A stretch of 62,041 nucleotides of DNA, filler included. It is 6 parts of 6 records of this genome, joined end to end, with 100 filler letters (N's around TTAATTAATTAA, not from the genome) between each part and the next. Parts side by side here need not be neighbours in the genome. Positions count along the whole stretch, not along the records: positions 41,865 to 62,041 come from DRR723986_2432; 5 more parts are not named here. One strand, given 5' to 3'. Positions 19,323 through 60,498 of this stretch are shown in pieces. Numbering within the stretch: the first letter of the stretch is position 1; each line of letters opens with the position of its first letter. Made by a program: the position numbers and the translations under genes. The notes under the pieces were generated by a model that was not told the DNA's origin, did not search any database, and was given only the letters and a program-made list of their open reading frames with translations.

Positions 19323-19350
19323 GGCCGGTTCGTTTCAATATCGAATTGCC

Positions 19351-47049: not shown

Positions 47050-47083
47050 TCGTCACACAACCGTAACACGCCTGAAGCACAAT
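47050..47083 (+). promoter_or_regulatory. Pho box plus -10 of the HAD gene
   Basis: TCGTCAC-acaa-CCGTAAC, 10 nt, CACAAT. Confidence 0.7.
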
Positions 47084-47084
47084 C

Positions 47085-47096
47085 TGGTGTATACCA
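47085..47096. promoter_or_regulatory. Putative PhnR (GntR/HutC-type) operator
   Basis: TGGTGTATACCA. Confidence 0.8.
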
Positions 47097-47108
47097 AAGG
47101 AGTTAACA

Positions 47109-47771
47109 ATGCTAGCCATTTTTGATCTGGACGAGACCCTGATTCAGGGGGACAGCTCTCAATTGTTCACCGAGTTCCTTCGGGCACAGGAGATCGAGCG
47201 CACTGACGATGCCCTCGATAAAGACCGGGATTTCATGTCGGACTACCGACAAGGCCGGCTGAACCTTCAGGCGTATATGGAATTCAGCCTGGCACCGCTG
47301 CAGGGCTGGCACCGGGAGCAACTCAACACCCTCGTCAGCCGGTTTATTGATCGTGTCATTGCGTCACGGGTGTTACCGACCGGCCGCGAGCGTGTTGCGT
47401 GGCATAAGGCCCAGGGGCACCGGGTGTTGATCATATCGGCTACCGGCGAACATCTGGTCAAACCCATTGCCCAGCATCTGGGCATTGAGGAAGGCATCGG
47501 CGTGGAAGTGGAATGGCGCGACGGAAGCCTGACCGGACAGATCGGGCCAAGGCGCCCCTTCCAGGAAGGTAAGGTGGCCGCCCTGCGCGAATGGCTGGGG
47601 AGGGACCAGGTAACACCGGAAAAGACTTGGTTCTATTCCGACTCGCATAACGATCTGCCGCTACTGGAACGAGTTGATTTCCCTGTTGCGGTCAACCCGG
47701 ACCCCAGGCTGAGACAACACGCCCAGAAACACGGCTGGCAGATCCTGACAGATTCTGCGACCCTGCCATGA
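47109..47771 (+). CDS. HAD-IB family hydrolase
   Basis: FDLDETL, ISAT, GK, YSDSHNDLPLL motifs. Confidence 0.92.
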   Translation: MLAIFDLDETLIQGDSSQLFTEFLRAQEIERTDDALDKDRDFMSDYRQGRLNLQAYMEFSLAPLQGWHREQLNTLVSRFIDRVIASRVLPTGRERVAWHKAQGHRVLIISATGEHLVKPIAQHLGIEEGIGVEVEWRDGSLTGQIGPRRPFQEGKVAALREWLGRDQVTPEKTWFYSDSHNDLPLLERVDFPVAVNPDPRLRQHAQKHGWQILTDSATLP

Positions 47772-47846
47772 TGCTACGACACCTGGCAATAGCCCGGGCA
47801 TGTCTTGCGGCGCCAGCGATCGTGCCGGCCGCCGCCCCTTCCCCGG

Positions 47847-48752
47847 TTATCCCAAAACCACAAGCAGCAAGCCGGCCAGTATGGTCAGAACCCCCACGAC
47901 CTTCGGCCCATGCAAGGCCTCGCCCAGGAAATACCAGCCCAGGGCTACGCCCATGGGAATACTGATTTGCCGGAACGCGACAACGTAACTCACATCGTCC
48001 GCATAGGCCATAGCCCAAACCACCAACGCGTAGGTGCCCAGAATCAGGATGCCAGCCGCCATGGTGCTGCGCCAATTTGCGGCCAGCTTCCTCAACAGTC
48101 GTCGCTCTTCGGATTGTAACCACAGACCAAGACTGAGCCAGCACAGCGCCGACCAGGCCTGGAGAATCACGAACACGAGTGCCACCTCGGCGTCCTGCGC
48201 CAGTCCCGCCAATAGCGCCCGCATCCGCTCGGTGGCCAGATCATCAACCATGGAGTAACCGGCCGTGCTGGCTGCGGCCAACAGCGCAAACAACGTGGCC
48301 AGGTTACGGTAGTTCGCCAGCGTGAAGTCGCGGAATCTCTGCATTGGCAGAACAATACAGCCAGCCACAATCAGACTGATCCCTATAACCGCAGCAGTGG
48401 TGATTGCCTCCGCGGTGCCAAGGAACAACGTGCCCACTAACAGGATGATCAGCGGCGAAGAACGGGCCAGCGGGTAAACCACCGACAATTCCCCGTGTCG
48501 GTATGCTGCCGCCAGACTGCTCAGGTAGGTAGCCTGAAAGAAACCGGTCGCGACCACCAGCCACCAGATCCCTGCGTCCAGTTCCGGCAACATCCGGTGG
48601 TAATACAGTAAGACTGGCAATGTCAGAAAGGCGCCCCAGAAGGTGCTATACCAGAAGAAAGCACCAGTGGGACTGACTTTTTTGCCAAACAGGTTCCAAC
48701 CCGCATGGGCCAGCGCCGACACCAGTACAATAACAATCGCGGTTGGTGTCAT
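47847..48752 (-). CDS. EamA/DMT family transporter
   Basis: About 10 TM, HAGWN, LSVVYPLAR, VVAFRQ.SI; starts 19 nt after the ABC permease stop. Confidence 0.9.
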   Translation of the reverse strand: MTPTAIVIVLVSALAHAGWNLFGKKVSPTGAFFWYSTFWGAFLTLPVLLYYHRMLPELDAGIWWLVVATGFFQATYLSSLAAAYRHGELSVVYPLARSSPLIILLVGTLFLGTAEAITTAAVIGISLIVAGCIVLPMQRFRDFTLANYRNLATLFALLAAASTAGYSMVDDLATERMRALLAGLAQDAEVALVFVILQAWSALCWLSLGLWLQSEERRLLRKLAANWRSTMAAGILILGTYALVVWAMAYADDVSYVVAFRQISIPMGVALGWYFLGEALHGPKVVGVLTILAGLLLVVLG

Positions 48753-48771
48753 AGGATCACTGCCGGGCCGT

Positions 48772-50502
48772 TCATTCGGTGCCCTGGCGCCAGGCCCGCG
48801 TAGACCGATCCACCCAGAAGCGCAGGCCACCCTGAATGAGCTTCGCGGCAGCACAAGTGGTGGTTATCAGGATCGCCATGGCGGCGGCGGGCGCAATGTC
48901 TCCCGCTTCATCCATGTTCAGTACCGCGACAGAGGCGAGTTGTGAATCGTGACCGTACAGGAAGACCACCGCAGACACCGTGGTCATGGCGTTAACGAAA
49001 AGGTAGAGCGCAACGTCAAGAATCGCCGGCAGACACAAGGGCAAGGTCACGGTGAACAGGACCCGCCAGCGAGACGCTTTCAGGGACTCGCCCACCGCTT
49101 CGAACTCCTGATCAAGCTGCTTTAACGCCGTTACCGCCGTCAGGTGGGACACCGCGTAAAAATGGCTCACGGTACACAGAATCAGAATAAACAGCGTGCC
49201 GTAGATCCCGTTAATCGGGTTATCCGGATGATTAAAGAAGAAAATATACGACAACCCAAGCACCAGGCCAGGTACCGCCAGCGGCAACAGCGACAGGAAC
49301 TGAAAAACACCGGTCAGCAGCCTCGGCTGGGGTGTGCGCTCCATCAGCCAGGCGTTGAAGAAAACCAGCAGTGTCCCGATTACCATGGTGCCCAGGGCCA
49401 TTTGCAGGCTATTGGTATAGGCGCCCCAGCCACCCCCGTCCATACGGCCGAACTGATAGTTGTTCAGGCTCAGTTCCAGATTGTACGGCCAGAAAGTCAC
49501 GAACGAGGCGTAGACAGCCATACCGATAATGGCCAGGATGAACAGGATCGTCGGCGCCAGCATAACAGCACCGATGACATCCCTCCTGTGGTCCCGGCGC
49601 GGCCGGTAAGGAACCGAACGCGCGGTAAAGCTTGCCGATTGCTTGCGCTGCACATAGCGGTCGGCCAGAAAGGCCAGCATGGCGGGCAGCAAAAGCAGCA
49701 CGCTGACGACGGCCCCCATTTCAAATTTCTGTTGCCCGATCACCTGTTTGTAGATGTCGGTAGCCAACACGTCGAATTGCCCGCCAATCACCTTGGGCAC
49801 CCCGAAGTCAGTGATCACCAGAGTGAAAACCACAAACGCGGCACTGACCAGTCCATAACGGGCACCTGGCACCGTCACGGTCCAGAAGGTGCGCCAGGGG
49901 CTCGCCTTCAACGCGGTTGCGGCCTCATAGTGCCGACCATCGGCATTGTCCATTGCCGTCAGCAGAATCATCAGTGCATGGGGAAACGTCCAGAAACAGG
50001 ACCCCATGATAATACCGATGGGGCCGTAGATTTCGGCACCGAACAACCAGCTTTTCAGGACACCCTGATTCCCGAACAGATACACCAGGCTGATCGCTGG
50101 CAACAGAGAGGGCGCCAGTATCGGCAGCACCAGAACCCCGCGGATCCAGCCGGTCATCGGCAGGCGAGTTCGTGTCAACGCCCAGGCCGCCATAAACGCC
50201 AGACCGACCACCACCAGGGTGCTCAGTCCCGCAACCCAGAGGGAGTTGAAAAACGCCGATTCGATGCCGCCGGAACTCAGATAATGGGCAAAGTTGTCGA
50301 GCCCGACAAAGTCACCGGCCTTGTTCTCCACACTCTTGGACAACAGGGTATAGAGCGGCGCCAGAACCAGAAGGCTCAAAACCGCGCAGCCGAGCACCAG
50401 CAGCAACGCAAACAGCCAGCGCCCGGTGACACGCTGCCGGAGTTCCGACAAGGCCCCGGCCCTGCGTGAGGGCGAGGTTAAAGGTACAGAGGAATCCATC
50501 AT
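48772..50502 (-). CDS. Putative 2-aminoethylphosphonate ABC transporter permease (two fused domains)
   Basis: APSLLPAISL, TDFGVPKVIGG, FVNAMTTVSAV; start could be 50532. Confidence 0.9.
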   Translation of the reverse strand: MMDSSVPLTSPSRRAGALSELRQRVTGRWLFALLLVLGCAVLSLLVLAPLYTLLSKSVENKAGDFVGLDNFAHYLSSGGIESAFFNSLWVAGLSTLVVVGLAFMAAWALTRTRLPMTGWIRGVLVLPILAPSLLPAISLVYLFGNQGVLKSWLFGAEIYGPIGIIMGSCFWTFPHALMILLTAMDNADGRHYEAATALKASPWRTFWTVTVPGARYGLVSAAFVVFTLVITDFGVPKVIGGQFDVLATDIYKQVIGQQKFEMGAVVSVLLLLPAMLAFLADRYVQRKQSASFTARSVPYRPRRDHRRDVIGAVMLAPTILFILAIIGMAVYASFVTFWPYNLELSLNNYQFGRMDGGGWGAYTNSLQMALGTMVIGTLLVFFNAWLMERTPQPRLLTGVFQFLSLLPLAVPGLVLGLSYIFFFNHPDNPINGIYGTLFILILCTVSHFYAVSHLTAVTALKQLDQEFEAVGESLKASRWRVLFTVTLPLCLPAILDVALYLFVNAMTTVSAVVFLYGHDSQLASVAVLNMDEAGDIAPAAAMAILITTTCAAAKLIQGGLRFWVDRSTRAWRQGTE

Positions 50503-50551
50503 GAAGGTCTTACCAGGGTGAAACGAGGGCATCGGGTTTTCGCGACCTCTT

Positions 50552-51622
50552 TCAGGCCGCGAAGCAATGCAAGGCATCAGACGGCAGGTTGAGACAGACT
50601 GCACCGCCCACCCGCAATTCCAGTTGTCGGGCAGAGCGCGGGTCTACGTCCACCACCAGGTCCAGTTCCACGCCATGCAGCCGGACGTGGGTGCGAATAA
50701 AGGCCCCCAGGTAATCCATCGCCTGGACCTGGCCTTCCCACTCACCGTCGCCCTGCGGCAGGAGATGAACATCCTCAGGCCGAATCGCCAGACGAATGCC
50801 GTCCGGCGTGGCCGGTAGCGGCCTGACCAGATCCAGCTCCCGATTGCCGAGGCGAACACGTTGCCCGTTCACTGGAGCGCTGTCGAAAAAGTTCATTGCC
50901 CCGATAAACGACGCCACAAACGCCGAAGCAGGCTGTTGGTAGATGTCCAGGGGTGTTCCCACCTGTTCAATCACCCCGTTATTCATAACCACCACTCGGT
51001 CTGCCATGGCCAGGGCTTCTTCCTGATCGTGGGTTACCATGATGGTGGTAACGCCCAGTTGCTTCTGCAGGCTGCGAATCTCGCTGCGAAGGTGGTGGCG
51101 AACTTTCGCATCCAGAGCTGAGAGTGGCTCATCGAGAAGCAGCAGGCCCGGGGATGGCGCCAAGGCTCGGGCAAGCGCCACCCGTTGCTGCTGGCCACCG
51201 GAAAGCTGCGCGGGATACTTGCGGGCGTGATCCTCCAGCCCGACCACGGCCAGAAGCTCGTCTACCCGATCACGAACCCGGGCCTTGGGCATACCGATGC
51301 TACGCAGTCCGTACGCCACATTGTCGGTTACCGTCATGTTCGGGAACAGCGCGTAGGACTGGAACACAATGCCGAAGTCACGATCCCGGGGCGGCTTTTG
51401 CGAGATATCGACATCGCCCTGTCGGAGCGTGCCGCAGCTCTGCTGTTCAAGCCCGGCAATAATGCGAAGCAGGGTCGTCTTGCCACATCCGGACGGCCCC
51501 AGAAAACACACCAGTTCACCGGGCTCAATGGTGAGATTGATATCCTTCAAGGCACAAAACTCGCCGAAGAACTTGTTTACGCCCCGGACTTCCAGACGAC
51601 TTCCCTGGGTATGCTGAATCAT
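50552..51622 (-). CDS. Putative 2-aminoethylphosphonate ABC transporter ATPase
   Basis: GPSGCGKT, LSGGQQQR, LLLDEP, C-terminal TOBE-like region. Confidence 0.92.
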   Translation of the reverse strand: MIQHTQGSRLEVRGVNKFFGEFCALKDINLTIEPGELVCFLGPSGCGKTTLLRIIAGLEQQSCGTLRQGDVDISQKPPRDRDFGIVFQSYALFPNMTVTDNVAYGLRSIGMPKARVRDRVDELLAVVGLEDHARKYPAQLSGGQQQRVALARALAPSPGLLLLDEPLSALDAKVRHHLRSEIRSLQKQLGVTTIMVTHDQEEALAMADRVVVMNNGVIEQVGTPLDIYQQPASAFVASFIGAMNFFDSAPVNGQRVRLGNRELDLVRPLPATPDGIRLAIRPEDVHLLPQGDGEWEGQVQAMDYLGAFIRTHVRLHGVELDLVVDVDPRSARQLELRVGGAVCLNLPSDALHCFAA

Positions 51623-51711
51623 GGTACCCCCTGCTTTTCTGATATCTGCCCGGGCACACCAGAACGGGTGCCCGGTCGCACAGGCCGGGGCTGGGCCCGG
51701 CTCCGAGCGGA

Positions 51712-52725
51712 TTACTTGGCTTCGGATTTGCCGTCGTAACGACGCGCCCACTCGGTCAGAATGGCTTCGCGATTACTGGCGGCCCAACCAAAATCGTTGT
51801 CGATAATCAGCGCTTCCGCGTTGGCGGGAAAATGTTCCACCGGCTGTGCCACACCTGGCATCGCTACAATGGCGTAGCCTTCGTTGTACATCTCCATGGC
51901 CTGACGGGTGATCGACCAGTCGACCAGAGTCTGGGCGGCTTCCAGTTTGTCGGTGCCGTCAACAATGGCGGTAGCTTCAACTTCCCAGCCCAGCCCTTCT
52001 TCCGGGAACACCAGCTCCAGAGGCGCGCCCTTCTCTTTCAGACGGGCACCACGGAAAGCGAAAGACACACCAATCGAGGTCTCACCCGAAGCAGCCATTT
52101 TGCAAGGCTTGGAGCCGGAGTGCGTATAGCGACTGATGTTCTGATGCAGGCCGTCCATGAACTCCCAGCCTTTGTCTTCGCCCATCAACTGGAGCCAGGC
52201 TGAAACGTCCAGAAAACCGGTTCCGGAAGAGTTCGGATTCGGCATCACAACATGGCCCCGATACACCGGCTTGGTCAGATCCTGCCAACTGGTGGGCATG
52301 GGCAAATTGTTCTTCTCAGCCTCGATGGTGTTGACGCATACCGCCGCCATCCAGGCATCCATGCCCACCCATGAGGGAGTCTCATCACGGTCACGGAACT
52401 TCGGCGACAACTTTTCCAGCCCTTCCGGCGCATAAGGCGTCAGCATGCCTTCGTTCTTCAGCAACAGCAGGCTGGTTCCCGCCAGCCCCCAAACGACATC
52501 CGCCTGCGGGTTTTCTTTCTCGGCCAGCAGTCGCGCGGTGATGACACCGGTAGAGTCGCGAACCCAGTTGATCTTGATGTCCGGGTGGTCTTCATTGAAT
52601 CGGGCGGCATACTTCTTGAGATCTTCCGCCTCAACCGCGGTGTACACGGTCAGTTCGGTCTGGGCGTTGGCGTTAACGGCCGCCATCAGGGCGGTCAGGG
52701 CCAGGGCTTTTTTCAGGTGTTTCAC
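51712..52725 (-). CDS. aepX: 2-aminoethylphosphonate ABC substrate-binding protein
   Basis: Signal peptide, LTVYTA, WVRDSTG, PNSSGTG, YTHSGSKPC; next to phnWX. Confidence 0.88.
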   Translation of the reverse strand: MKHLKKALALTALMAAVNANAQTELTVYTAVEAEDLKKYAARFNEDHPDIKINWVRDSTGVITARLLAEKENPQADVVWGLAGTSLLLLKNEGMLTPYAPEGLEKLSPKFRDRDETPSWVGMDAWMAAVCVNTIEAEKNNLPMPTSWQDLTKPVYRGHVVMPNPNSSGTGFLDVSAWLQLMGEDKGWEFMDGLHQNISRYTHSGSKPCKMAASGETSIGVSFAFRGARLKEKGAPLELVFPEEGLGWEVEATAIVDGTDKLEAAQTLVDWSITRQAMEMYNEGYAIVAMPGVAQPVEHFPANAEALIIDNDFGWAASNREAILTEWARRYDGKSEAK

Positions 52726-52764
52726 GCTACTCTCCTTTTACGGCATCAGTTCGGTTAGGCTTTC

Positions 52765-52776
52765 TGGTCTATACCA
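52765..52776. promoter_or_regulatory. Putative PhnR operator
   Basis: (TC)TGGTCTATACCA(GA). Confidence 0.85.
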
Positions 52777-52791
52777 GATTCGCTAACCACC

Positions 52792-52836
52792 ACCTTAGGG
52801 ACATTTGATTGCAAAGACGTGACAGCTCGATGACGT
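52792..52836 (-). promoter_or_regulatory. Pho box plus -10 of the aepX operon
   Basis: Minus strand ACGTCAT-cgag-CTGTCAC-gtct-TTGCAAT, 10 nt, TAAGGT. Confidence 0.8.
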
Positions 52837-52851
52837 TTCCTTGTCGGTCCC

Positions 52852-53679
52852 TCAGGGGCGCTCTCCCGCTGCCAGACGGCTCTCGATATCGCGGATAACC
52901 CCTGGCAGGTCCTGTATCGAATCGATGACATAATGGGCTGCCGATCTCGCCATCACCTGGCGACCACGGGCCAGCAACGCTTCGCGATCGTTCTCCGGAA
53001 GGGCGTAAAACTGAGCTTCACTCAATCCGACTGAATTACCGGAGGCCACTACGGCCACCGTCCACATACCCGCATTCAGACCTTCCTCAATACCCGTCCC
53101 TGTATCGTCTACTTTGACGCAGGCCTGCACTGCGCCAATGCCCAGTTCGAGCGCGTTTTTCAGGCTCATGTGTGGTGCCGGTCTACCGGCCGGCACTTCT
53201 GTCGCCACAACCACGCTTTCCGGTATAAATCCCTGATCCGCGAGCCCCGGCAGCATAACGTTCACCATGTCTCGGCTATATCCGGTGTTCACCCCCAACC
53301 TGATGCCTTTTTCACGAAGCAGATCCTGAAGCGCCAGGGCACCCGGAATCAGTGTTGCCCGTTCCGCAATCGCCGCGGTCTGAAGGGGCAGAAATGCCTC
53401 ATAGAGGCGATCGACATCAACGGCCTCCGGCGCCTTACCATGAGTCTCCAGCCATTGGCTCCGAATGCGGGGCATCGCAAGCAAACAACGGATATGCTCA
53501 CGCTTTTCGGTCCCCATGGGCTCCCGGGCTTCGGTTTCGGAGACATCAATGCCCTCGTTCCGGAACAACTGGAGAAAGGCCTGAATCGGTGCCAGTGAAC
53601 CGAAATCCACGCAGGTTCCGGCAAGGTCCATAATCACCGCTTGCAGAGGACCGGTGTAACGACGGGTGTAACTGTGCAT
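52852..53679 (-). CDS. phnX: Phosphonoacetaldehyde hydrolase (phosphonatase)
   Basis: DLAGTCVDFGS, PMGTEKREHI (Schiff-base Lys), GRPAP, VKVDDT, GLNAGMW. Confidence 0.95.
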   Translation of the reverse strand: MHSYTRRYTGPLQAVIMDLAGTCVDFGSLAPIQAFLQLFRNEGIDVSETEAREPMGTEKREHIRCLLAMPRIRSQWLETHGKAPEAVDVDRLYEAFLPLQTAAIAERATLIPGALALQDLLREKGIRLGVNTGYSRDMVNVMLPGLADQGFIPESVVVATEVPAGRPAPHMSLKNALELGIGAVQACVKVDDTGTGIEEGLNAGMWTVAVVASGNSVGLSEAQFYALPENDREALLARGRQVMARSAAHYVIDSIQDLPGVIRDIESRLAAGERP

Positions 53680-53710
53680 AACGCTTCTTCCTTTTGCGAT
53701 CAGAGTGAGA

Positions 53711-54862
53711 TCATTGGTTTTCGAGATTGTCTGGCGCAGCAGCCGGAGGGGGTACCGGCACCGACATTCCCAGCGACTGACAGGCATCGGCAATCGCCGC
53801 CACCACTGCATCAATCTGCGGATCATGAAGTTGGCCAATACAGCCAAGCCGGAAGCTCTCCGCGACCGTCAGCTTGCCGGGATAGATCAGGAAACCTCGG
53901 GCCTTGATGGCCTCGTAAAAACGGGGAAAATCGAAATCCGGGCTGTCTGGAGACAGGAAAGTCGTAATGATTGGAGACAGCCATTCATCGGCCAGCAGAG
54001 TCTGGAACCCTAGCTCGCGAAGGCCCGCCACCAGTCGGTCTCGGTTTCGGCTGTAGCGGGCAAGACGACCGGCCACACCGCCTTCGGCCTCGTGTTCTCG
54101 CAGGGCCTGCAAAAAGGCGGCGACCACGTGGGTCGGCGGCGTATAGCGCCACTGCCCCGTTCTTTCCATGTACCGCCATTGGTCGTACAGATCCAGCGAC
54201 AGGCTGTGGCACTGCCCTTCGGACTCAGACAGCAGGGTCTTGTCCACTATGGCAAAACCGAAGCCCGGCACACCTTCAAAGCACTTGTTGGCGGACGAAA
54301 CCAGCGCCGCACAGGGTAACTCCGCCACGTTGACCGGCAACGCGCCAAACGCGCTCATGCTGTCGATAATCAGGCGCTTGCCAGCCTTTTCACAGACCTC
54401 GGCGATTTCAGGAATCGGGTTGAGAATGCCCGAACTGGTTTCGCAGTGAACGACCACCACCTGATCAATCTCCGGGTGCTGTCGAAGTGTCCGTGCCACC
54501 TCGTCACCCCGCGGCGGATGGTAATCTCCTTTGTCGATGGCCAGGCATCGACGGCCCAAGCGATCAAGAATTTTGCTGATTCGCTGTCCATAGGCTCCGT
54601 TCATCAGTACCAGCGTGGTGCTGTTCCGGGGAACCAGCGTGCCCAACGTGGCTTCCACCGCAAAGGTACCGCTACCCTGCATGGGAACGCACACATGACT
54701 ATCCTGGCCACCGGCCACACGCAGCAGACGCGCACACACCTCTGCGGTGAGCTCATTAAAGTCGTTATCCCAGGAGCCCCAGTCGTGCAACATGGCCTGC
54801 TTCACAGACAGACTGGTGGTCAGCGGACCGGGGGTCAGTAAATACGGATCGTTCGGGGTCAT
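53711..54862 (-). CDS. phnW: 2-aminoethylphosphonate--pyruvate transaminase
   Basis: [45 protein letters not shown]. Confidence 0.97.
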
Positions 54863-54879
54863 TGGAGTCTCCAACGGAA

Positions 54880-56112
54880 TTAGCCAGTGCGTTTGCGGGC
54901 TCGTGCCGCAGCACAGCGGTGGATAAAATCAGGATCAAAGGGATCAATGGCGCCAAACCGGTCCAGGCGAAACGGCTCGGAAGTGACGAAGGTCGGCTGG
55001 CCGGCTATCAGTTCGCTGATGAATCGACCAATGCCTCCCGACATACCAATGCCGGCACCGGAACAGCCGGTTGCAGCGATAAAACCCTGAATGCCAGGCA
55101 TGGGGCCCAGCAGGTAGAAGCCGTCCGGGGTATAGCTGGAAACGTTGCTGACGTAGTGGGCCAACCGGAGTTCGTCCAGCAGGGGAAGCTGAGACCGCAG
55201 TGACGCGTACCCGTCCTCAAGGGCATGCTCACCCGCTGGATCGGTATCGAAGCGGAAGCCCTGCAGACTCTCGGGCAGGACCGCCGGGTCTGCAACCACG
55301 GCCTGTGCTTCCCGAAGACCGAACAGCAAACCGCCCACGTCTGGCCGCGCATAGGCGCCACTGTCGGGCAATATCGTCATCGGGCCATGGGCAGGAATAC
55401 GAGCGTCAGGTGCCGATATCCAGTAATGACTGCGCACCGGCGCCATGCCAAGGTGAACACCCACTTGCCTGGCCAGAGCCGTACTCCAGGGGCCGGCGGC
55501 ATCAACCACCAGGCCGGCCGAGAGCACCTCACCATGCCCGAGGCGAACACCCGTTACCCGGCCACCCTGCATAAGCAGGTCGCTGACACTTTGCTTCAGA
55601 CGAAACCGAACACCATGGCGGCGCCCCTCAGCGGCATAAGCCATGCACAACGAATAAGGATCAATATAGCCATCGCCCGGCAACCAGAGGGCGGCAGTAT
55701 CGGGTGTCAAATCAAGCCACGGAGCCAGTTGCATGGCATCCTGCACGGCAATCGCTTTTGCAGTCACGCCGGCCTCTTTTGCTCGCCGGGCTGTCTCTTC
55801 GAGCTGGCGCAGCCCGTCTGGTTGCGCAGACACCTGCAGACTGCCAACGCTTCTGAGCGGTAAGGGCTCACCGCTGCTCTGCCCCATTTCCTCAATAGCG
55901 CGAAAGGTTTCCATGGCCAAAGCCGTCAAGGCCGAATGCGGACGGATACGGGTAAGAAGCGCAGCCGCGTAGCTGGTGGTCTGCTCTCCCAGACCGTGTC
56001 GCTCAACCACGGTGACGCTGAGGCCGGGTAAACGACTGAGATATCGGGCAATCGCGCATCCGAGAATGCCGCCTCCAATAATGACGACATCCGGATGATG
56101 GGGTGTGGGCAT
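54880..56112 (-). CDS. FAD-dependent amine oxidoreductase (DAO/sarcosine oxidase superfamily; Pbf-like)
   Basis: [25 protein letters not shown]; first gene of the phnWX operon. Confidence 0.88.
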
Positions 56113-56130
56113 GGTAGCTCCTCGCTCATC

Positions 56131-56142
56131 TGGTATAGACCA
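56131..56142. promoter_or_regulatory. Putative PhnR operator
   Basis: (C)TGGTATAGACCA(G). Confidence 0.85.
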
Positions 56143-56186
56143 GTTTGACGAGGAACTGTGACGGTTTTATGAAGACCCGATGACAG
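56142..56186 (-). promoter_or_regulatory. Pho box plus -10 of the oxidoreductase-phnWX operon
   Basis: Minus strand CTGTCAT-cggg-TCTTCAT-aaaa-CCGTCAC, 10 nt, CAAACT. Confidence 0.82.
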
Positions 56187-56210
56187 TCCGGAGACGATCT
56201 GCCGGAGCGG

Positions 56211-56939
56211 TCAGCTCACTTCAACCTGAATACTCAAGGCATCGTGCAGCCAGAACTCTTCATCGAACTCGATAAAGCCTCCCTGACCGTCCTGACTGCA
56301 ACGGGTGACATAGAGCCCTGCGGTACCAGCCGTTACACCGATGGCACTCGCCTGAGGATCCACCAACGCCGTGGGATACATTTCAATTCGCTTACCCTTC
56401 AGTTCCACGCCATATTGCTCCCGGAGAAGTTTCCAGAGCGAGCGGTTGAAATCGTATGTCTCAATGCCCGGCAAGCGGGTCGCATTCAGGTAAATGTTCT
56501 CAACCAGCACTGGCCGGCCATCAATCTGACGGCGCCGACGAAGCCAGATCACCGGATCGCCGACAGCCAGGCCGGTTTTTGTGGCAAGCCAAGCATTGGC
56601 CTCGGTCGCGGTGACATCCAGGGTTTCGGTTTCGGGCACTCGGCCCTGAGCGGTAACGTTGTCTGAGAAACTGTAATCGTGCGTTGGTTTGTAGATCAGC
56701 CGGGGCGGGGAAACAAACCAGCCACGGCGATTGGAGCGGTAGATCTTTCCCTCTGCTTCCAGTTGCGCGAGCGCGAGACGGGTGGTGACGCGGGTAGTGC
56801 CGAATTGTTCGGCCAGGATTCGCTCGGAGGGTAATCGGGTATTCGGGGTCAGCACTCCCTTGTCGATCTGCCCCGCTAACTGATCTCGCACCCTCAGATA
56901 AAGCGGCAGGGTACCCTCCGCAAACGCTTGCTGCTGCAT
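56211..56939 (-). CDS. phnR: GntR/UTRA phosphonate utilisation regulator
   Basis: LPSER, TTRVT.R.AL, IYRSNRRGWFVSPPRL, EFDEEFW.HDA. Confidence 0.9.
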   Translation of the reverse strand: MQQQAFAEGTLPLYLRVRDQLAGQIDKGVLTPNTRLPSERILAEQFGTTRVTTRLALAQLEAEGKIYRSNRRGWFVSPPRLIYKPTHDYSFSDNVTAQGRVPETETLDVTATEANAWLATKTGLAVGDPVIWLRRRRQIDGRPVLVENIYLNATRLPGIETYDFNRSLWKLLREQYGVELKGKRIEMYPTALVDPQASAIGVTAGTAGLYVTRCSQDGQGGFIEFDEEFWLHDALSIQVEVS

Positions 56940-56969
56940 ACTCCGCTCCTGTCACCCACAAAACCTGCC

Positions 56970-57003
56970 ACGCTAAGCCGGCACTGTGACGACAGTATGA
57001 CAG
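56970..57003 (-). promoter_or_regulatory. Pho box plus -10 of phnR
   Basis: Minus strand CTGTCAT-actg-TCGTCAC, 10 nt, TAGCGT. Confidence 0.78.
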
Positions 57004-57043
57004 AGCACGGGCGAAGGGCGTAAGTTCCTGAACCCGGTACGTT

Positions 57044-57084
57044 AAAACAAGAAACCCCAGGCCACATCGGCGGCCCGGGGTTTC
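57044..57084 (-). terminator. Intrinsic terminator after the phosphoesterase gene
   Basis: GAAACCCC(G)GGCC...GGCC(T)GGGGTTTC followed by TTGTTTT on the minus strand. Confidence 0.75.
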
Positions 57085-57115
57085 GGTCTATTGCTTTTCA
57101 ATGAGCAGAGATCGC

Positions 57116-59545
57116 TCAGTACAGCAAACTCAGCGACACGTTATCAAAGTAAACGTCGTTGTCGTTGCCGGCCTTGCGCTCACCGCCAATGTGCACCACC
57201 ACGCTGCGGACACCGGCCGGTAAAAAGCCCTCTATTGACTGGGTTTCCCAGCTCTTGATGGAGGTACTGGTACGCTCCGGCGACTGGTTCCACGCCACCG
57301 GCTGATCGTTCGCATCGCGCAACTCAATCCTCAATTCCGGTATATCATCCGCCGACCAGGTGGTCATTTGCGCCGAGAGATCCAGATACACCTTACCGGC
57401 GTCGATATCCTGCCCGTAGGACGAAATATCCACCTGCTGGAACGCCGAATCCGTGCAGCAGTCGCCAGGCAGTCCCTGGCCGAACCCTCGGCCCGCGAAA
57501 TAGTAGTCGCCCTCGACCGCACCAAAGCCCCCGTTGTTGTTGGCCGTGATGGCACTGACCAGTCCGCTCGACAGCGTCCAGGCCGACAGGTCTCCGGCTT
57601 CTGCATCACCATTGGTCAGCAGGTTCGGGGTGCGGGTGCCGGCCAGGCTGAAACTGTAGCCCTCACTCCAGGACGACCAGTTCATCTGCGAGTCTCTCAC
57701 CCGGGCCCGCCAGTAATAGGTGGTGCCGGGTTTCAGCCCCAGAGTGGGCCTTGGCTGGCCGCCGTAGGCATCGTAGGAGGAAACGTGCGTATTCTGAGAG
57801 GCAAACCGTTTGTTCCAGCGGTAGTAGTCATCCCCCCCCGGACGGACGGTCTTCAGGCTTAACAGCTCCGACAGATTCAGGCGGAAGATATCGGCGCCCT
57901 GCTGGGTATCAATGGCTTCATAGCCCTGATATTCATCACCGCCCACCTGAGTGGCTTCATCATAGAACAGATTGTGGCGCCGGGTTTCGTTACCCCATAC
58001 GTCAAACACGACCCCCTCGAACTGCTCATTCTCGGAGATCTGCCATTGCACTTCGTGCACCTGCTCAGGCGCACCCACGTTCACCGCCAGCTGAATATCC
58101 GTGGCCGGCAACTCACCCGTTCCCGCGGTTGCCTGCGGCAGGTTGTCATTGCGTTTACTGGCGAAGGTTACCTCATCCACCACCTCAAATTCGGTATCAC
58201 CGTCATACCCACCTTTTTTCCGCTGCAACGTCACCGAGGCGTCCGCTCCAAAACGGTACGTCAGCACGCTGTAACCAAACTCGCTACGGCTGACCTCAAA
58301 GGTATCGTAGTCGCTGATCTGATTGTTCTGATGATCGGCGTTGTCGAGTGGTTCAATGTAGCCTGAGGCACTGGCTGCGTTGAGCCACAGGTGCGGCGTG
58401 TTTAACGACTGCCCGCGGGAATAGGAATGAGTGTGCCCGAAGAAATGGCCGGTGACCGCACCGGTGCGGTCGCTGTATTTTTCCAGCTCAGACACCATTT
58501 CGCAGGAACCAATGCTTTCCCCCACATTCCACATCTCAGACAGGCAGCCGTGATGGAACATGCCCATCACGAAGGTCTTCTGCTGGATTTCGGCATCAAG
58601 CAGCGTTTCCCGCAGCCATTGGCGCTGAACCGCCAAGGTCTCGCGATTGAAACTGCCGTGGGCGCCCGAAATCGGGTAGCTGTCCAGCCCAATCAACCGA
58701 AGGTCCAGATAATCGATGAAATACCAGTGATCCTCATAGCCCACCGATCCGTTTTCCGGTGGCGACATGTAAGTTCGATACAGCTCCAGCTCCGCATTCG
58801 AGTAGTAGTCATGGTTACCCGGAACCGTAATCAGTGGCACGTAGGGTGTGATATCTGCCATTCGCCCGAACAGCTGGTCCCGCCAGTTGGAACGGTTGCC
58901 GCCGGTTTGTACCACGTCCCCGGAGATAGTGATGGCAGCAATGTTCTCGGCACAGGTCTCGGGCTGAGTACCGTTGCATTCCTCGGTCATGAAACCATCT
59001 GTCACCACGTTGTTCAGCACCACCTCGTAGATCTCCCGATCCAGCTGGGTGTCACTGATCGCAATGAACCGCGCCTGCTCAACATCGTCGCTCGCATCTG
59101 GCCAGGTTTTGAAGGCAAAGGCCTGTGTCACCCGCCCCACTCCGCCTGCGTCGTTCGTCAGCACGTAGTATTCGTATAAACGATTTGACTCGAGCCCCGA
59201 CATGACCGCCCGATACACCAGGCCATCCTCGGAGTGAACGCCAGCGTCAATCTTCTGAAACTCGTCCGAACTGCCGAAAGGACGCACCCACACCTGCGGC
59301 TGCGTGTTCTCGGTCTCAAACATCACCGTCATGGTATCGCTACCCGGTGCCTGCAAATACGGCCTGACAATAAATTCGGGGGGCTGCTCTGCCGAAGGCG
59401 CCGGCACCACCACAGGGTCTGGGTTGCCCGGCTGCTCAGTGCCAGGGGCCGGAGCTGCGTCAGAACTCGAACTGGAATCGTTACAACCTGTCAGCAGCAG
59501 GGCCGAGGCACCGGCTGCCAGCAGTATGCGGTAGGGGGAAGACAT
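57116..59545 (-). CDS. Lipoprotein metallophosphoesterase (purple-acid-phosphatase-like) with FN3-like and putative C-terminal carbohydrate-binding domains
   Basis: Lipobox LLTG-C21; PYLQ..MTVMFET N-domain; SDTQ, GDVV, GNHD, FHH, GHTH; YYWRARVRD...WSSWS; NLLTNGDAE...YFDNVSL jelly-roll pattern. Confidence 0.88.
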   Translation of the reverse strand: MSSPYRILLAAGASALLLTGCNDSSSSSDAAPAPGTEQPGNPDPVVVPAPSAEQPPEFIVRPYLQAPGSDTMTVMFETENTQPQVWVRPFGSSDEFQKIDAGVHSEDGLVYRAVMSGLESNRLYEYYVLTNDAGGVGRVTQAFAFKTWPDASDDVEQARFIAISDTQLDREIYEVVLNNVVTDGFMTEECNGTQPETCAENIAAITISGDVVQTGGNRSNWRDQLFGRMADITPYVPLITVPGNHDYYSNAELELYRTYMSPPENGSVGYEDHWYFIDYLDLRLIGLDSYPISGAHGSFNRETLAVQRQWLRETLLDAEIQQKTFVMGMFHHGCLSEMWNVGESIGSCEMVSELEKYSDRTGAVTGHFFGHTHSYSRGQSLNTPHLWLNAASASGYIEPLDNADHQNNQISDYDTFEVSRSEFGYSVLTYRFGADASVTLQRKKGGYDGDTEFEVVDEVTFASKRNDNLPQATAGTGELPATDIQLAVNVGAPEQVHEVQWQISENEQFEGVVFDVWGNETRRHNLFYDEATQVGGDEYQGYEAIDTQQGADIFRLNLSELLSLKTVRPGGDDYYRWNKRFASQNTHVSSYDAYGGQPRPTLGLKPGTTYYWRARVRDSQMNWSSWSEGYSFSLAGTRTPNLLTNGDAEAGDLSAWTLSSGLVSAITANNNGGFGAVEGDYYFAGRGFGQGLPGDCCTDSAFQQVDISSYGQDIDAGKVYLDLSAQMTTWSADDIPELRIELRDANDQPVAWNQSPERTSTSIKSWETQSIEGFLPAGVRSVVVHIGGERKAGNDNDVYFDNVSLSLLY

Positions 59546-59560
59546 GAAACTCTCCTTTAT

Positions 59561-59588
59561 TGGTATATACCAGTTTTGGTACCTACCA
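59561..59588. promoter_or_regulatory. Tandem putative PhnR operators
   Basis: TGGTATATACCA (59561-59572) and TGGTACCTACCA (59577-59588). Confidence 0.85.
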
Positions 59589-59654
59589 AAATAGAGGGAG
59601 AAAGTGTCAGTCCTGTGATTATTGTGTTGCGGTCACCTTAAAGATTCATGACAA
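59588..59654 (-). promoter_or_regulatory. Pho-box array (11-bp phase) plus -10 of the phosphoesterase gene
   Basis: Minus strand TTGTCAT-gaat-CTTTAAG-gtga-CCGCAAC-acaa-TAATCAC-agga-CTGACAC, 10 nt, TATTTT; inner half-sites are degenerate. Confidence 0.65.
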
Positions 59655-59655
59655 C

Positions 59656-59667
59656 TGGTACATACCA
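59656..59667. promoter_or_regulatory. Third putative PhnR operator upstream of the phosphoesterase
   Basis: (C)TGGTACATACCA(G). Confidence 0.82.
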
Positions 59668-59702: not shown

Positions 59703-59744
59703 AACCGTGCCGGGCCGTCTCAAGCAGGCCTGCCCGGCACGGTT
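59703..59744. terminator. GC-rich hairpin downstream of the GST gene
   Basis: AACCGTGCCGGGC ... GCCCGGCACGGTT 13-bp inverted repeat; no clear U tract. Confidence 0.55.
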
Positions 59745-59774
59745 GTCATGCCCCGTATCTCAAAGCCGGCAAAA

Positions 59775-60410
59775 TCAGACCACTGCGGCTTTGAGCTGCT
59801 CTGCCAGTTCATCGTCCAGTGCGTTGGCACGTCTGGCCGCTGGCCGGCTTTCCAGTCTGTCGGTGTACTCCCGGAACACATCGAGCCTGGGGATGTTTTC
59901 CTGCATCATTTCCCACCAAAGATAACTACTCACCAGCACATCTGCAGCCGTGAACTGATCACCGCAGATATAGGGAGTTTTTGCCAGCGCTTGTTCCAGT
60001 ACCTTAATACTGTCGTTGACTGGCCCACATCCTACAGCCTGCTCGTTGCTGCTATCGATCCGCCAATCATAAGCGATGGCGCTGCTCGCCATTTCAAAAG
60101 GCCCCGCCATAAAAAACAGCCAGCGGTAATACCCGCCACGCTCCGGTGCGTGGAGCCCGGGAGCCAGATTCTTTTCCGGGAACCGATCGGCCAGCCAGGC
60201 ACAGATCGCGGCGACTTCAGTCACCACCACGTCGCCATGCTTGATAGCGGGCACCTTGCCCATCGGGTTAATGGCCAGGTATTCCGGCCCTTTCATATCC
60301 CCGCCAAACTCCAGTGTTTTCACCGTATAATCGGCACCCACTTCCTCCAGCATCCATCGAACCACGCGCCCGCGGGACATGGGATGGGTATAAAGCGTCA
60401 GATCTGACAT
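59775..60410 (-). CDS. Glutathione S-transferase family protein
   Basis: HPMSRG, INPMGKVP, EVAAIC, FTAADV. Confidence 0.93.
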   Translation of the reverse strand: MSDLTLYTHPMSRGRVVRWMLEEVGADYTVKTLEFGGDMKGPEYLAINPMGKVPAIKHGDVVVTEVAAICAWLADRFPEKNLAPGLHAPERGGYYRWLFFMAGPFEMASSAIAYDWRIDSSNEQAVGCGPVNDSIKVLEQALAKTPYICGDQFTAADVLVSSYLWWEMMQENIPRLDVFREYTDRLESRPAARRANALDDELAEQLKAAVV

Positions 60411-60477
60411 ATTGATCTCCTTTTCCTGCCAGTTGTTTTCGTGATTGTGTGTACTGCAGCGCCAGCTTATGCGGCAA

Positions 60478-60498
60478 TTAGGCAAGAATCCGTCCTAA
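60478..60498. promoter_or_regulatory. Inverted repeat in the GST/WYL divergent region
   Basis: TTAGG-caagaatccgt-CCTAA. Confidence 0.5.

Follow-up and report, generated by a model that had tools for sequence, protein, structure and literature searches.

The cluster described here, for the use of the natural phosphonate 2-aminoethylphosphonate (AEP), lies in a 62-kb window (the whole stretch of DNA that was analysed). Its transport genes, all on the minus strand, encode the AEP-binding protein PhnS2 (51712..52725; TIGR03261, 540 bits), the ABC ATPase PhnT2 (50552..51751; TIGR03265, 495 bits), and the fused ABC permease PhnU2 (48772..50604; TIGR03262, 788 bits). A DMT/EamA membrane protein is encoded on the same strand (47847..48854); besides EamA, it matches TIGR03340, named [quoted passage not shown], at 190.6 bits, i.e., below the cut-off of 288. 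Since this ORF and the end of phnU2 overlap, the gene is probably the last one of the phnS2 operon. Another minus-strand unit starts with a FAD-dependent amine oxidoreductase of the DAO family (54880..56112; PF01266, 199 bits), to which dimethylglycine dehydrogenase/oxidase and sarcosine oxidase come closest among proteins of solved structure, and continues with the AEP:pyruvate transaminase PhnW (53711..54874; NF010006, 554 bits) and the phosphonoacetaldehyde hydrolase PhnX (52852..53847; TIGR01422, 328 bits). The family match of PhnX begins at residue 68 of the listed ORF, and the true start is probably later than the listed one.

The regulator PhnR (56211..56939, minus strand) is of the GntR/HutC type and comprises a GntR and a UTRA domain; its best model, TIGR03337 (phnR), is matched at 249 bits, below the trusted cut-off of 297, and its nearest solved proteins are the repressors DasR and NagR/YvoA. 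The cluster also harbors genes of two hydrolases. One is a 220-aa HAD-IB protein (47109..47771, plus strand) with an N-terminal DxDxT motif and no signal peptide; the other is an 809-aa lipoprotein phosphoesterase (57116..59545, minus strand; lipobox LLTGC), whose gene is followed by an intrinsic terminator with a 15-bp stem and a T tract (57051..57084, minus strand).

Operator palindromes

The palindrome TGGT-N4-ACCA was found seven times in the window vs. 0.79 expected, and none of 100 shuffles reached this number. Six copies reside in four intergenic regions of the AEP cluster, exactly where the initial annotation had placed them: TGGTGTATACCA at 47085..47096, 12 nt before the ATG of the HAD gene (47109); TGGTCTATACCA at 52765..52776, between the phnS2 start (52725), from which it is 39 nt away, and the phnX stop (52852); TGGTATAGACCA at 56131..56142, 18 nt before the oxidase ATG (56112); and three sites, 59561..59572 (TGGTATATACCA), 59577..59588 (TGGTACCTACCA), and 59656..59667 (TGGTACATACCA), in the interval bounded by the ATG of the phosphoesterase (59545) and the stop of GST (59775). 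The seventh copy, TGGTTCCGACCA at 20766, lacks the central TA, is situated within a long ORF (19351-21615), and is the one chance match that the background predicts. The strict HutC-type form TGGTnTAnACCA is exact at 47085, 52765, 56131, and 59561, with one mismatch at 59656 and two at 59577. When two mismatches are allowed, it has 28 matches in the window vs. 15.0 expected, so only exact or near-exact sites stand out. The cluster palindrome agrees with the HutC-subfamily consensus GT-M-TA-K-AC (GTMTAKAC) as quoted in PMC4494728.

To assess conservation of the palindrome, 80 phnR loci of other genomes were scanned, counting operators up to 160 bp upstream of a gene; many of these loci belong to close relatives, so the counts given below overstate the independent support. 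The strict motif occurred 161 times in the 1,000,147 bp surrounding phnR or lying downstream of it vs. once in the far-upstream flanks (450,254 bp). Strict operators precede phnS2 in 48/49 loci, the FAD oxidase in 37/39, the 809-aa phosphoesterase in 7/7, the HAD-IB hydrolase in 22/29, and phnW in 23/49, and they are almost missing upstream of the internal operon genes (phnX, 0/53; phnT2, 0/57; phnU2, 0/49) and of phnR itself (1/80). These in silico results support the palindrome as a conserved operator specific to the phnR loci and, along with the match to the HutC consensus, its earlier assignment to HutC/UTRA-type GntR operators; PhnR is predicted to be the protein binding it.

The DMT gene had also been counted as a regulon member. 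In the window, it lacks an operator of its own. A homologue occurs in 53 of the 80 loci (at least 35% identity over at least 50% of the query) and has a strict operator of its own in only one of them; hence, its membership holds most simply via the phnS2 operon. The link of this protein with phosphonates is already known: it is encoded in TIGR03340 and was noted, as “DUF6”, in PMC3266647.

Pho-box-like repeats and promoter layout

Direct CTGTCAy repeats, phased as 7+4 nt and ending 10 nt before the -10 hexamer, represent the classical Pho-box layout of E. coli. Base-by-base re-reading confirmed all five such arrangements claimed for the cluster. On the minus strand, these include CTGTCAT-actg-TCGTCAC (57003-56986), 10 nt, and TAGCGT (56975-56970) in the phnR promoter (56970..57003; Pho-box score 13/14); ACGTCAT-cgag-CTGTCAC-gtct-TTGCAAT (52836-52808), 10 nt, and TAAGGT (52797-52792) in the phnS2 promoter (52792..52836); and CTGTCAT-cggg-TCTTCAT-aaaa-CCGTCAC (56186-56158), 10 nt, and CAAACT (56147-56142) in the oxidase promoter (56142..56186). 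The phosphoesterase promoter (59588..59654, minus strand) contains five 7-mers phased by 11 bp (TTGTCAT, CTTTAAG, CCGCAAC, TAATCAC, and CTGACAC; 59654-59604), located 10 nt before TATTTT (59593-59588). On the plus strand, the HAD gene is preceded by TCGTCAC-acaa-CCGTAAC (47050..47067; 11/14) and, 10 nt further, by the -10-like hexamer CACAAT (47078..47083), conserved as CACAAT/CATAAT. No sigma-70 -35/-10 consensus promoter was found in the promoter intergenic regions of the cluster, as expected if the promoters are activator-dependent.

The enrichment of Pho boxes in the window alone is modest: seven sites score at least 12/14 vs. 3.8 +/- 1.5 in 30 Markov shuffles; five of them are in the intergenic regions of phnS2, the oxidase, and phnR, and the sites of HAD and the phosphoesterase score below 12/14. 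Cross-species conservation is the stronger evidence. In the Marinobacter alignments, the Pho boxes are conserved blocks within otherwise divergent flanks, and a score of at least 12/14 is reached upstream of the oxidase in 35/39, phnS2 in 27/49, and phnR in 25/80 regions, as compared with 39/2000 random control segments (a score of 11 was reached in 134/2000). Of the 29 HAD upstream regions, 7 reach 12 or more and 11 reach 11 or more; upstream of the phosphoesterase, the best pair scores 11/14 in 5/7 loci and never 12. Accordingly, a Pho box is strongly supported at the oxidase, phnS2, and phnR promoters, moderately at HAD, and weakly at the phosphoesterase.

The operator shares one base with the -10 hexamer or starts 1 nt after it in the oxidase, HAD, and phosphoesterase promoters (in the oxidase promoter, the last base of the operator is the common one), and it follows the hexamer by 15 nt in the phnS2 promoter. 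The gap from the end of the Pho box to the operator amounts to 17 nt, or to a multiple of 11 added to 17 or 15 nt. Several genera share this order of elements (Pho box, 10 nt, -10 hexamer, operator), e.g., Marinobacterium, where perfect CTGTCAC-N4-CTGTCAT boxes are found at an unchanged distance from the operator. The phnR promoter in the window possesses a Pho box and no operator, placing phnR outside the PhnR-repressed set.

The two hydrolases and competing readings

The HAD-IB protein matches TIGR01490 at 169 bits (cut-off 98) and NF052360 at 225 bits (cut-off 280), so it appears histidinol-phosphatase-like, yet below the cut-off of that model; the nearest solved structure is 3fvv, followed by SerB. 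Among 19 distinct Marinobacter upstream sequences, the repeats begin the sole conserved block, and the operator keeps its position in 17; two M. litoralis loci (L019, L020) have the HAD gene with neither operator nor Pho box in the upstream alignment. Seven of the 29 HAD loci lack an operator within 160 bp, and in some of these the gene is internal to an operon. In other genera, HAD homologues are embedded in phn operons or clusters: as the last gene (L029, from Nitrincola, and also L024), the first gene after phnR (Oceanospirillaceae L070/72/73/78), or a neighbour of phnR (Vreelandella L076/L080). Together with the operator counts, this arrangement upholds in silico the proposed extension of the regulon to HAD.

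The phosphoesterase combines a purple-acid-phosphatase-like N-domain and a metallophosphoesterase core with subsequent Ig-like and beta-sandwich modules. Its metal-ligand motifs are intact (invariant residues D165, D210, N244, H245, H331, H371, and H373). The predicted structure (pLDDT 87.5) resembles plant PAP/phytase (E about 1e-18) and PhoD (5e-14) in fold, and the PDB contained no sequence match. The evidence on its regulation comes from seven Marinobacter loci, six of which have the gene directly upstream of phnR. The proximal canonical operator, 15 nt before the start, is kept in all seven, in line with the claim that the regulon reaches this gene; the distal one, just upstream of the phased repeats, is an exact TGGT-N4-ACCA in five, a one-base variant in L005, and missing in L019. 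The second operator, abutting the -10 hexamer, is of the TGGTA-NN-TACCA type without central TA. Counting against this claim, Marinobacter species with no copy at their phnR locus also have members of the family, as do Hahella, Photobacterium, and Vibrio.

It is rather unlikely, though worth serious consideration, that the phosphoesterase is primarily a member of another, related regulon governed by a PhnR paralogue with a different inducer. The TGGTA-NN-TACCA sites at 59577 and 59656 would then be operators of the paralogue, which was lost from the locus or resides elsewhere in the genome of the window, and only the canonical 59561 site would be shared with PhnR. Such a GntR/UTRA protein (237-247 aa, 35% identical to PhnR; best model TIGR03337 at 179-183 bits) is indeed encoded divergently from the phosphoesterase in two related Marinobacter species (L005, L012), where the proximal site of non-canonical type reads as a perfect TGGTACGTACCA; in genomes free of the paralogue, this site drifts to TGGTAGGTACCA, TGGTGGGTACCA, and TGGTGGGCACCA. 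Still, the paralogue is absent from the window and from 5/7 phosphoesterase loci, the adjacency to phnR and the canonical site argue for PhnR, and other HutC operators tolerate variation of the central dinucleotide. The presence of the paralogue beside the phosphoesterase in the two species implies that PhnR may not be its sole regulator, and two of the three operators may belong to the second one.

A chance location of HAD beside the cluster, as a histidinol-phosphatase or another housekeeping phosphatase with a palindrome and repeats not functional for it (e.g., serving the divergent MFS gene, which shares the intergenic region), seems quite improbable. The best named model is NF052360, look-alike clusters in the Atlas are named “putative histidinol-phosphatase”, and M. 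litoralis lacks both elements; however, all 11 sampled of the 28 distinct phn-linked homologues also match that model below its cut-off (177-227 bits), the MFS neighbour is present in only two loci, and in the 19 Marinobacter loci with the operator, 12-13 nt separate it from the ATG of HAD. Moreover, phn operons of at least four other genera contain HAD homologues, including a PhnZ/PhnY*-type cluster, and a substrate-specific repressor is not expected to control a housekeeping gene of the histidine pathway. There is a similarly small chance that the TGTCA-type repeats are sites of another regulator (e.g., of nitrogen or carbon limitation) or part of a sigma-54 promoter, with AEP acting on the cluster as a source of nitrogen or carbon, in place of phosphate starvation. 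The HAD and phosphoesterase repeats do depart from the TGTCA core, and CTGTCACGTCTTTGCAA, a conserved stretch at phnS2, bears a superficial resemblance to a -24/-12 element. However, the sigma-54 consensus has GG and then 10 nt before GC, whereas this stretch has GT and 9 nt; the phasing, the spacing to the -10 hexamer, and the perfect Marinobacterium boxes also speak for PhoB. According to PMC9311074, the AEP genes of P. putida are also under NtrBC and CbrAB, but the Salmonella phnR-phnSTUV-phnWX genes are cited there as Pho-regulated.

Proposed dual control and known systems

Overall, the region, from a Marinobacter that is close to M. nauticus, is likely a regulon for the utilisation of AEP, controlled by both PhoB and PhnR. 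On phosphate starvation, PhoB~P would bind the 11-bp-phased TGTCA-type repeats, which would stand in for a -35 element at a distance of 10 nt from the weak -10 hexamer that follows, and activate the phnR, phnS2T2U2-DMT, and oxidase-phnW-phnX promoters, probably that of HAD, and possibly that of the phosphoesterase. PhnR, as a GntR repressor of the HutC type whose ligand domain is UTRA, would bind the 12-bp palindrome TGGT-M-TA-K-ACCA abutting or just downstream of the -10 hexamer and block RNA polymerase until released by an inducer, presumably AEP or a catabolite such as phosphonoacetaldehyde. With its Pho box and no operator, phnR would be expressed on starvation without autoregulation. The binding of both proteins is predicted from motif class and position; the sign of regulation and the inducer are likewise inferred. 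The PhnR-repressed set would comprise the ABC importer with the DMT protein, PhnW and PhnX together with the FAD amine oxidase (putatively of a kind that oxidises N-methyl-AEP), the cytoplasmic HAD-IB enzyme, and the outward-facing surface lipoprotein. Outside the cell, the lipoprotein may free AEP, or the phosphate analogue of AEP, from glycans or lipids attached by an ester link; inside it, the HAD enzyme may hydrolyse a 2-aminoalkyl phosphate or phosphonate ester after import; such a role of both in releasing esterified AEP is conjectural.

The regulatory logic, PhoB activation combined with a HutC-type PhnR repressor, is of a known kind. The new part is the inclusion of two uncharacterised hydrolases, the HAD-IB protein and the surface lipoprotein, in an AEP regulon, where they may free phosphonate from larger molecules. 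The modifying step suggested earlier for the pathway is represented by the FAD amine oxidase, which matches a class of ancillary enzymes already published, PbfB/C/D (PMC10590968), and is not new. As a precedent for the cluster, dual control of the P. putida AEP genes by PhoBR and a substrate-specific regulator is established (PMC9311074).

Gene Content and Putative Operators of the phn Cluster

In the gene cluster for the use of 2-aminoethylphosphonate (AEP; phn cluster, 47.0–59.8 kb), the minus strand encodes an 809-aa metallophosphoesterase (57116–59545) with a strong intrinsic terminator 3′ of its gene (57084–57051), the regulator PhnR harboring GntR and UTRA domains (56211–56939), an FAD amine oxidoreductase (hereafter, the oxidase; 54880–56112), PhnW (53711–54874), PhnX (52852–53847), PhnS2 (51712–52725), PhnT2 (50552–51751), PhnU2 (48772–50604), and a TIGR03340-type DMT/EamA protein (47847–48854), whose ORF overlaps the end of phnU2. 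A HAD-IB hydrolase is encoded on the plus strand (47109–47771).

Both PhnR domains score above the model cut-offs (GntR PF00392, 61 bits; UTRA PF07702, 101.5 bits); the best model is TIGR03337 (249.2 bits vs. a cut-off of 296.75), the location beside phnWX and phnS2T2U2 fits the PhnR-type context, and the nearest solved proteins are the repressors DasR and NagR/YvoA (E about 1e-24). The source of the window is a Marinobacter; PhnR is 100% identical to its counterparts from M. nauticus DSM 50418 and a Marinobacter MAG (phnR loci L002 and L001). The DMT protein also matches its best model, TIGR03340, below the cut-off (190.6 bits vs. 288); it lies within a phosphonate cluster, and, of the 80 phnR loci from other genomes, 53 have a homologue of at least 35% identity. 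The association of such “DUF6” proteins with phosphonate use is already recorded in TIGR03340 and in passages of PMC3266647.

The putative PhnR operator, the palindrome TGGT-N4-ACCA, occurs seven times in 62 kb against 0.79 copies expected, and none of 100 shuffles reached seven. The initial annotation had placed six copies between genes, and they are indeed found in four intergenic regions of the phn cluster: upstream of the HAD gene (47085), phnS2 (52765), the oxidase gene (56131), and the phosphoesterase gene (59561, 59577, 59656). Four sites match TGGTnTAnACCA exactly, 59656 deviates by one mismatch and 59577 by two; the latter two lack the central TA that defines the strict, or canonical, form. 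The seventh copy (20766) is attributed to chance, given that it lacks the central TA and lies within an ORF, one chance occurrence being expected.

The conservation of the operator was followed in the 80 loci, fetched with a PhnR alignment, including up to 10 kb of flank per side, and annotated by tblastn with the window proteins (at least 50% query coverage and 35% identity, best match per locus); an operator was counted if situated within 160 bp upstream of a gene. The strict palindrome appears 161 times in the 1.00 Mb that begins 3.3 kb upstream of phnR and runs to the end of each locus, and once in 0.45 Mb of the farther upstream flank of the same loci. It precedes phnS2 in 48/49 loci, the oxidase gene in 37/39, the phosphoesterase gene in 7/7, the HAD gene in 22/29, and phnW, where it heads a unit, in 23/49, and it is rare or missing before phnR (1/80), the DMT gene (1/53), phnX (0/53), phnT2 (0/57), and phnU2 (0/49); these counts are not independent, since many close relatives are among the loci. 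The set spans, e.g., Marinobacter, Marinobacterium, Oceanospirillum, Amphritea, Nitrincola, Vreelandella, and Neptunomonas. Overall, this cross-species conservation strongly supports the operator predicted from the sequence. RegPrecise has PhnR regulogs, in which such sites may already be included. The palindrome agrees with GT-M-TA-K-AC, the consensus of the HutC subfamily as worded in the passages covered of PMC4494728, and its sites are located in promoters of the cluster genes. A palindrome without the central TA, TGGTATCGACCA, is located 45 nt before phnR solely in M. mangrovi (L021:9911), where it may represent a lineage-specific autoregulatory site.

Two related Marinobacter species possess a second GntR/UTRA gene on the minus strand, divergent from the phosphoesterase gene (L005:6446–7189 and L012:6513–7226). 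Its product is 35% identical to PhnR and also has TIGR03337 as the best model (179–183 bits); no such paralogue was found in the remaining 78 of the 80 loci or in the window, where tblastn retrieved only PhnR itself (35%). In L005 and L012, the non-canonical proximal operator of the phosphoesterase gene is a perfect TGGTACGTACCA; in genomes lacking the paralogue it drifts to TGGTAGGTACCA, TGGTGGGTACCA, or TGGTGGGCACCA, and the canonical TGGTATA(T/G)ACCA is retained. Hence, two of the three sites in the phosphoesterase promoter may be, or may once have been, sites of the paralogous regulator.

Several peculiarities were observed within and around the cluster. The oxidase gene is truncated in the MAG of M. 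excellens HL-55 (L004:10798–11990, a partial tblastn match, with the downstream genes shifted by about 76 bp) and missing at L005:10797–11082 and L014:10992 (a MAG), where the operator now precedes phnW, in L005 by 273 nt; so, unless this is an assembly artefact, some lineages can dispense with the oxidase gene or are losing it. In L014, a second DMT paralogue (19034–20028), 69% identical to that of the window, is divergent from the HAD gene, and the HAD operator sits between the two. In the window, the intergenic region upstream of the HAD gene is shared with a divergent gene for an MFS transporter (45688–46953, minus strand), whose start is 131 nt from the operator; as just 2 of the 80 loci have such a neighbor, this gene is probably outside the regulon. 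At the other border, a GC-rich inverted repeat, CCGTGCCGGGC...GCCCGGCACGG (59707–59745), lies just 3′ of a GST gene (59775–60485, minus strand); it probably serves as the terminator of that gene, insulating the phosphoesterase promoter, and is not among the results of a simple terminator scan. Beyond it, divergently from the GST gene, runs the gene of a WYL-domain regulator (HTH_11 + WYL + WCX; 60557–61513, plus strand); the next one encodes a 3-demethylubiquinone-9 3-methyltransferase-family protein (PF06983). Both are unrelated to the phn cluster and found only in L001 and L002.

Promoter Layout and Predicted Phosphate Control

As described for E. coli, a Pho box consists of at least two 7-bp direct repeats CTGTCAy phased at 11 bp, which replace the −35 element 10 nt upstream of the −10 hexamer. 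Such a layout had been proposed for five promoters of the cluster, and a base-by-base rereading bore it out: each carries (C/T)TGTCA(C/T)-like 7-mers with 11-bp phasing and, after 10 nt, the hexamer. The operator overlaps the −10 hexamer by a base or starts 1 nt after it in three promoters (oxidase, HAD, and phosphoesterase); in the phnS2 promoter, it follows 15 nt after the hexamer, and the phnR promoter features repeats and hexamer without an operator. In the Marinobacter upstream alignments, repeats, hexamer, and operator stand out as conserved blocks in otherwise divergent flanks.

To quantify the layout, pairs of half-sites spaced by 11 bp were scored (maximum 14) in the 200 bp preceding each gene. 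A score of at least 12 was recorded before the oxidase gene in 35/39 loci, phnS2 in 27/49, phnR in 25/80, the HAD gene in 7/29 (11/29 at a score of at least 11), phnW in 1/49, and the phosphoesterase gene in 0/7 (a score of 11 in 5/7), compared with 39 of 2000 random 203-bp segments (134 at a score of at least 11). Within the window, a Pho box is recognizable at phnR, phnS2, and the oxidase gene, partly at the HAD gene (11/14), and weakly at the phosphoesterase gene (at most 11/14); on its own, the window displays a modest enrichment (7 sites vs. 3.8 ± 1.5 in 30 Markov shuffles). For sites with a score of 11 or more, the distance from the end of the Pho box to the start of the operator forms clusters at 17 nt as well as at 15, 26, 28, and 37 nt, which represent one architecture with extra phased repeats. 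The same layout recurs beyond Marinobacter, e.g., as CTGTCAC-N4-CTGTCAT at 17 nt in a Marinobacterium locus (L050).

Other promoter types were considered as well. A scan of 15 kb for sigma-70 consensus promoters returned three matches vs. 5.7 expected, all outside the phn intergenic regions, which fits activator-dependent promoters. A sigma-54 promoter at phnS2 was suggested by the conserved CTGTCACGTCTTTGCAA, superficially resembling a −24/−12 element; it was rejected because the sigma-54 consensus used for comparison has GG, where GT is found here, and the spacer is one base short. The stretch in question, CTGTCACGTCTTTGCAATCAAAT (52808–52825, minus strand), is conserved in 15 of 18 distinct aligned phnS2 upstream sequences of Marinobacter, differing in two M. 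litoralis loci and M. mangrovi, and is read as Pho-box repeats.

On this evidence, the support for control by PhoB is rated as good at the promoters of phnR, phnS2, and the oxidase unit, moderate at that of the HAD gene, and weak at that of the phosphoesterase gene. The whole picture is best explained by activation by PhoB at the predicted sites combined with repression by PhnR, an arrangement of a known kind with ordinary logic. Titles and abstract beginnings in the literature gave no evidence of phosphate-starvation expression data for Marinobacter with AEP.

Two Hydrolases of the Predicted AEP Regulon

The initial annotation had extended the regulon to, among others, a HAD phosphatase and a lipoprotein phosphoesterase. 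For the former, a HAD-IB hydrolase, the extension proved well supported: along with the operator upstream of the gene in 22 of the 29 loci, homologues (36–43% identity) reside within phn clusters of other genera, a line of evidence independent of the motif. Its position varies: it is the last gene in the order phnR-phnS2T2U2-phnWX-DMT-HAD (L024 and a Nitrincola locus, L029), the first after phnR with an operator upstream (Oceanospirillaceae loci L070, L072, L073, and L078), or adjoins phnR (Vreelandella loci L076 and L080). In Marinobacter, the operator is situated 12–13 nt before the HAD ATG in 17 of 19 distinct upstream sequences; two M. litoralis loci have the gene without operator or repeats. 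The cluster of an Osedax symbiont (L072:1108–6029; also in L073) encodes PhnR, the HAD-IB protein, an HD-domain oxygenase of the PhnZ type (209 bits), a PhnY*-like hydroxylase, PhnX, and a DMT protein, with a single operator, before the HAD gene, and no ABC importer. This cluster combines genes for oxidative and hydrolytic C–P cleavage, so the HAD protein accompanies different C–P-cleaving chemistries.

The HAD protein is cytoplasmic, with motif I (DxDxT) reading DLDET at residues 6–10. It belongs to HAD-IB according to TIGR01490 (169 bits, cut-off 98) and falls short of the equivalog level of its best named model, the Pseudomonas-type histidinol-phosphatase NF052360 (225 bits, cut-off 280); all 11 phn-linked homologues sampled from 28 distinct ones likewise score 177–227 bits on the histidinol-phosphatase model, below the cut-off. 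Among solved structures, an uncharacterised protein of Bordetella (3fvv) comes closest, ahead of phosphoserine phosphatases, and the look-alikes in the atlas are only generic clusters named “HAD family hydrolase/putative histidinol-phosphatase”. Histidinol phosphate is a 2-aminoalkyl phosphate, and a relative acting on phosphoethanolamine-like esters or AEP monoesters would be chemically natural; such compounds are candidate substrates of the phn-linked protein.

For the phosphoesterase, the claimed extension is supported within Marinobacter. The gene adjoins phnR in 7 of the 80 loci (L001–L005, L012, and L019, divergent in the last), all of which have at least one canonical operator 10–17 nt before its start; the Pho box is weak there, with none of the seven reaching 12.

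The N-terminus of the phosphoesterase carries the lipobox LLTGC (residues 17–21) and a low-complexity linker, followed by the Pfam domains Pur_ac_phosph_N and Metallophos. An alignment of 30 sequences revealed invariant D165, G209-D210, G243-N244-H245, H331, and G370-H371-T372-H373, i.e., the D, GD, GNH(D/E), H, and GHxH metal ligands of the Metallophos fold. Purple acid phosphatases (PAPs) are hallmarked by the motif GDxxY, whose tyrosine is the ligand of the Fe3+-tyrosinate chromophore; this protein reads GDVVQ instead and was hence counted among PAP-like proteins rather than true PAPs. Its AlphaFold2 model (mean pLDDT 87.5, pTM 0.81) matched in Foldseek, over the N-terminal half, plant purple acid phosphatases/phytases (E 2e-18 to 5e-16) and B. 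subtilis PhoD (5e-14). Within the C-terminal 340 residues, some parts matched, with much lower coverage, beta-sandwich modules from glycoside hydrolases, from a sugar-binding F-box domain, and from a tailspike. Pfam at E ≤ 1 yielded only sub-threshold Ig/FN3-like signals for this region, so its possible sugar-binding character rests on weak partial Foldseek matches to the model. A sequence search of the PDB returned nothing at E ≤ 0.01, and the homologues, bearing generic names only, are found in Marinobacter, Hahella, Photobacterium, and Vibrio.

No biogenic phosphonate is more common than AEP, much of which occurs in nature ester-bound to lipids, glycans, and proteins; the AEP pathways known to us begin from free AEP or close analogues. 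The removal of phosphonate ester substitutions on marine polysaccharides has been postulated as a key step, with no enzyme named for it in the passages covered of PMC5649143. An attractive inference is that the two hydrolases would release ester-bound AEP. One joint reading, possible albeit rather unlikely, would make the lipoprotein a cell-surface phosphonate-ester (or phosphodiester) hydrolase and the phn-linked HAD-IB clade a cytoplasmic hydrolase of small 2-aminoalkyl phosphate/phosphonate esters. The beta-sandwich modules of the former would hold AEP-decorated glycans or lipids, its PAP-like center would cut the P–O–C ester and free AEP for import, and the latter would accept, e.g., phosphoethanolamine or an AEP monoester. 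If so, aminophosphonate catabolism would gain in them its first dedicated “release” enzymes, and they would be candidates for the enzymes detaching ester-bound phosphonates from marine high-molecular-weight organic matter. By linking two uncharacterised hydrolases to the AEP regulon, the conserved operator singles out two concrete, easily expressed candidates and also offers a simple regulatory test.

Comparison with Known Systems

The palindromic sites of the window share with the dre consensus of DasR/NagR (YvoA) the TGGT...ACCA arms and the central TA; those regulators respond, in contrast, to GlcNAc-6-P or GlcN-6-P and govern a different regulon. Another parallel is found in Salmonella enterica, whose phnR-phnSTUV-phnWX is cited as Pho-regulated in passages of PMC9311074 and whose PhnR is called a putative regulator in those of PMC5351497; no published operator for it was found in the literature passages covered. 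In both cases, a GntR/HutC-type regulator with TIGR03337 as its best NCBIfam match is encoded beside an AEP ABC importer and phnWX under phosphate-starvation control, the latter being predicted for the window. The window PhnR, however, scores below the TIGR03337 trusted cut-off, the transporter is PhnS2/T2/U2 with a fused permease instead of PhnSTUV (only 53–72 bits to PhnS), and the cluster adds the FAD oxidase, DMT protein, HAD-IB hydrolase, and surface phosphoesterase.

In Pseudomonas putida BIRD-1, according to passages of PMC9311074, the AEP genes are governed by PhoBR/NtrBC/CbrAB and the LysR-type AepR, and AEP transport and phnWX are fully expressed only when both the nutrient-stress and the substrate-specific regulator act. 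Such two-input logic, established there, is common to the window cluster, where it is predicted; the differences are that a LysR-type activator is replaced by a protein of the HutC type, for which the position of the sites points to repression, and that no accessory hydrolases are described in those passages.

The window oxidase, whose nearest solved proteins are dimethylglycine and sarcosine oxidases, fits the description of PbfB/C/D, PF01266 FAD amine oxidoreductases converting N-methyl-AEP to phosphonoacetaldehyde; Pbf enzymes are accessory genes recurring in phnWX/phnWYA clusters and broadening their substrate range (PMC10590968, PMC12366243, in part). The ancillary enzymes named there are PbfA, B, C, D, and F, and the passages covered mention no HAD-IB hydrolase or metallophosphoesterase among them; nor did titles and abstract beginnings appear to tie phnW/phnX to a HAD-IB hydrolase, metallophosphoesterase, histidinol phosphatase, or purple acid phosphatase. 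With plant PAPs/phytases and PhoD, the phosphoesterase shares, as modeled, an FN3-like N-domain and a metallophosphoesterase core that align structurally, whereas the identity is only 12–16%, and the window protein is extended by a lipoprotein anchor and, at the C-terminus, by some 340 additional residues of beta-sandwich modules.
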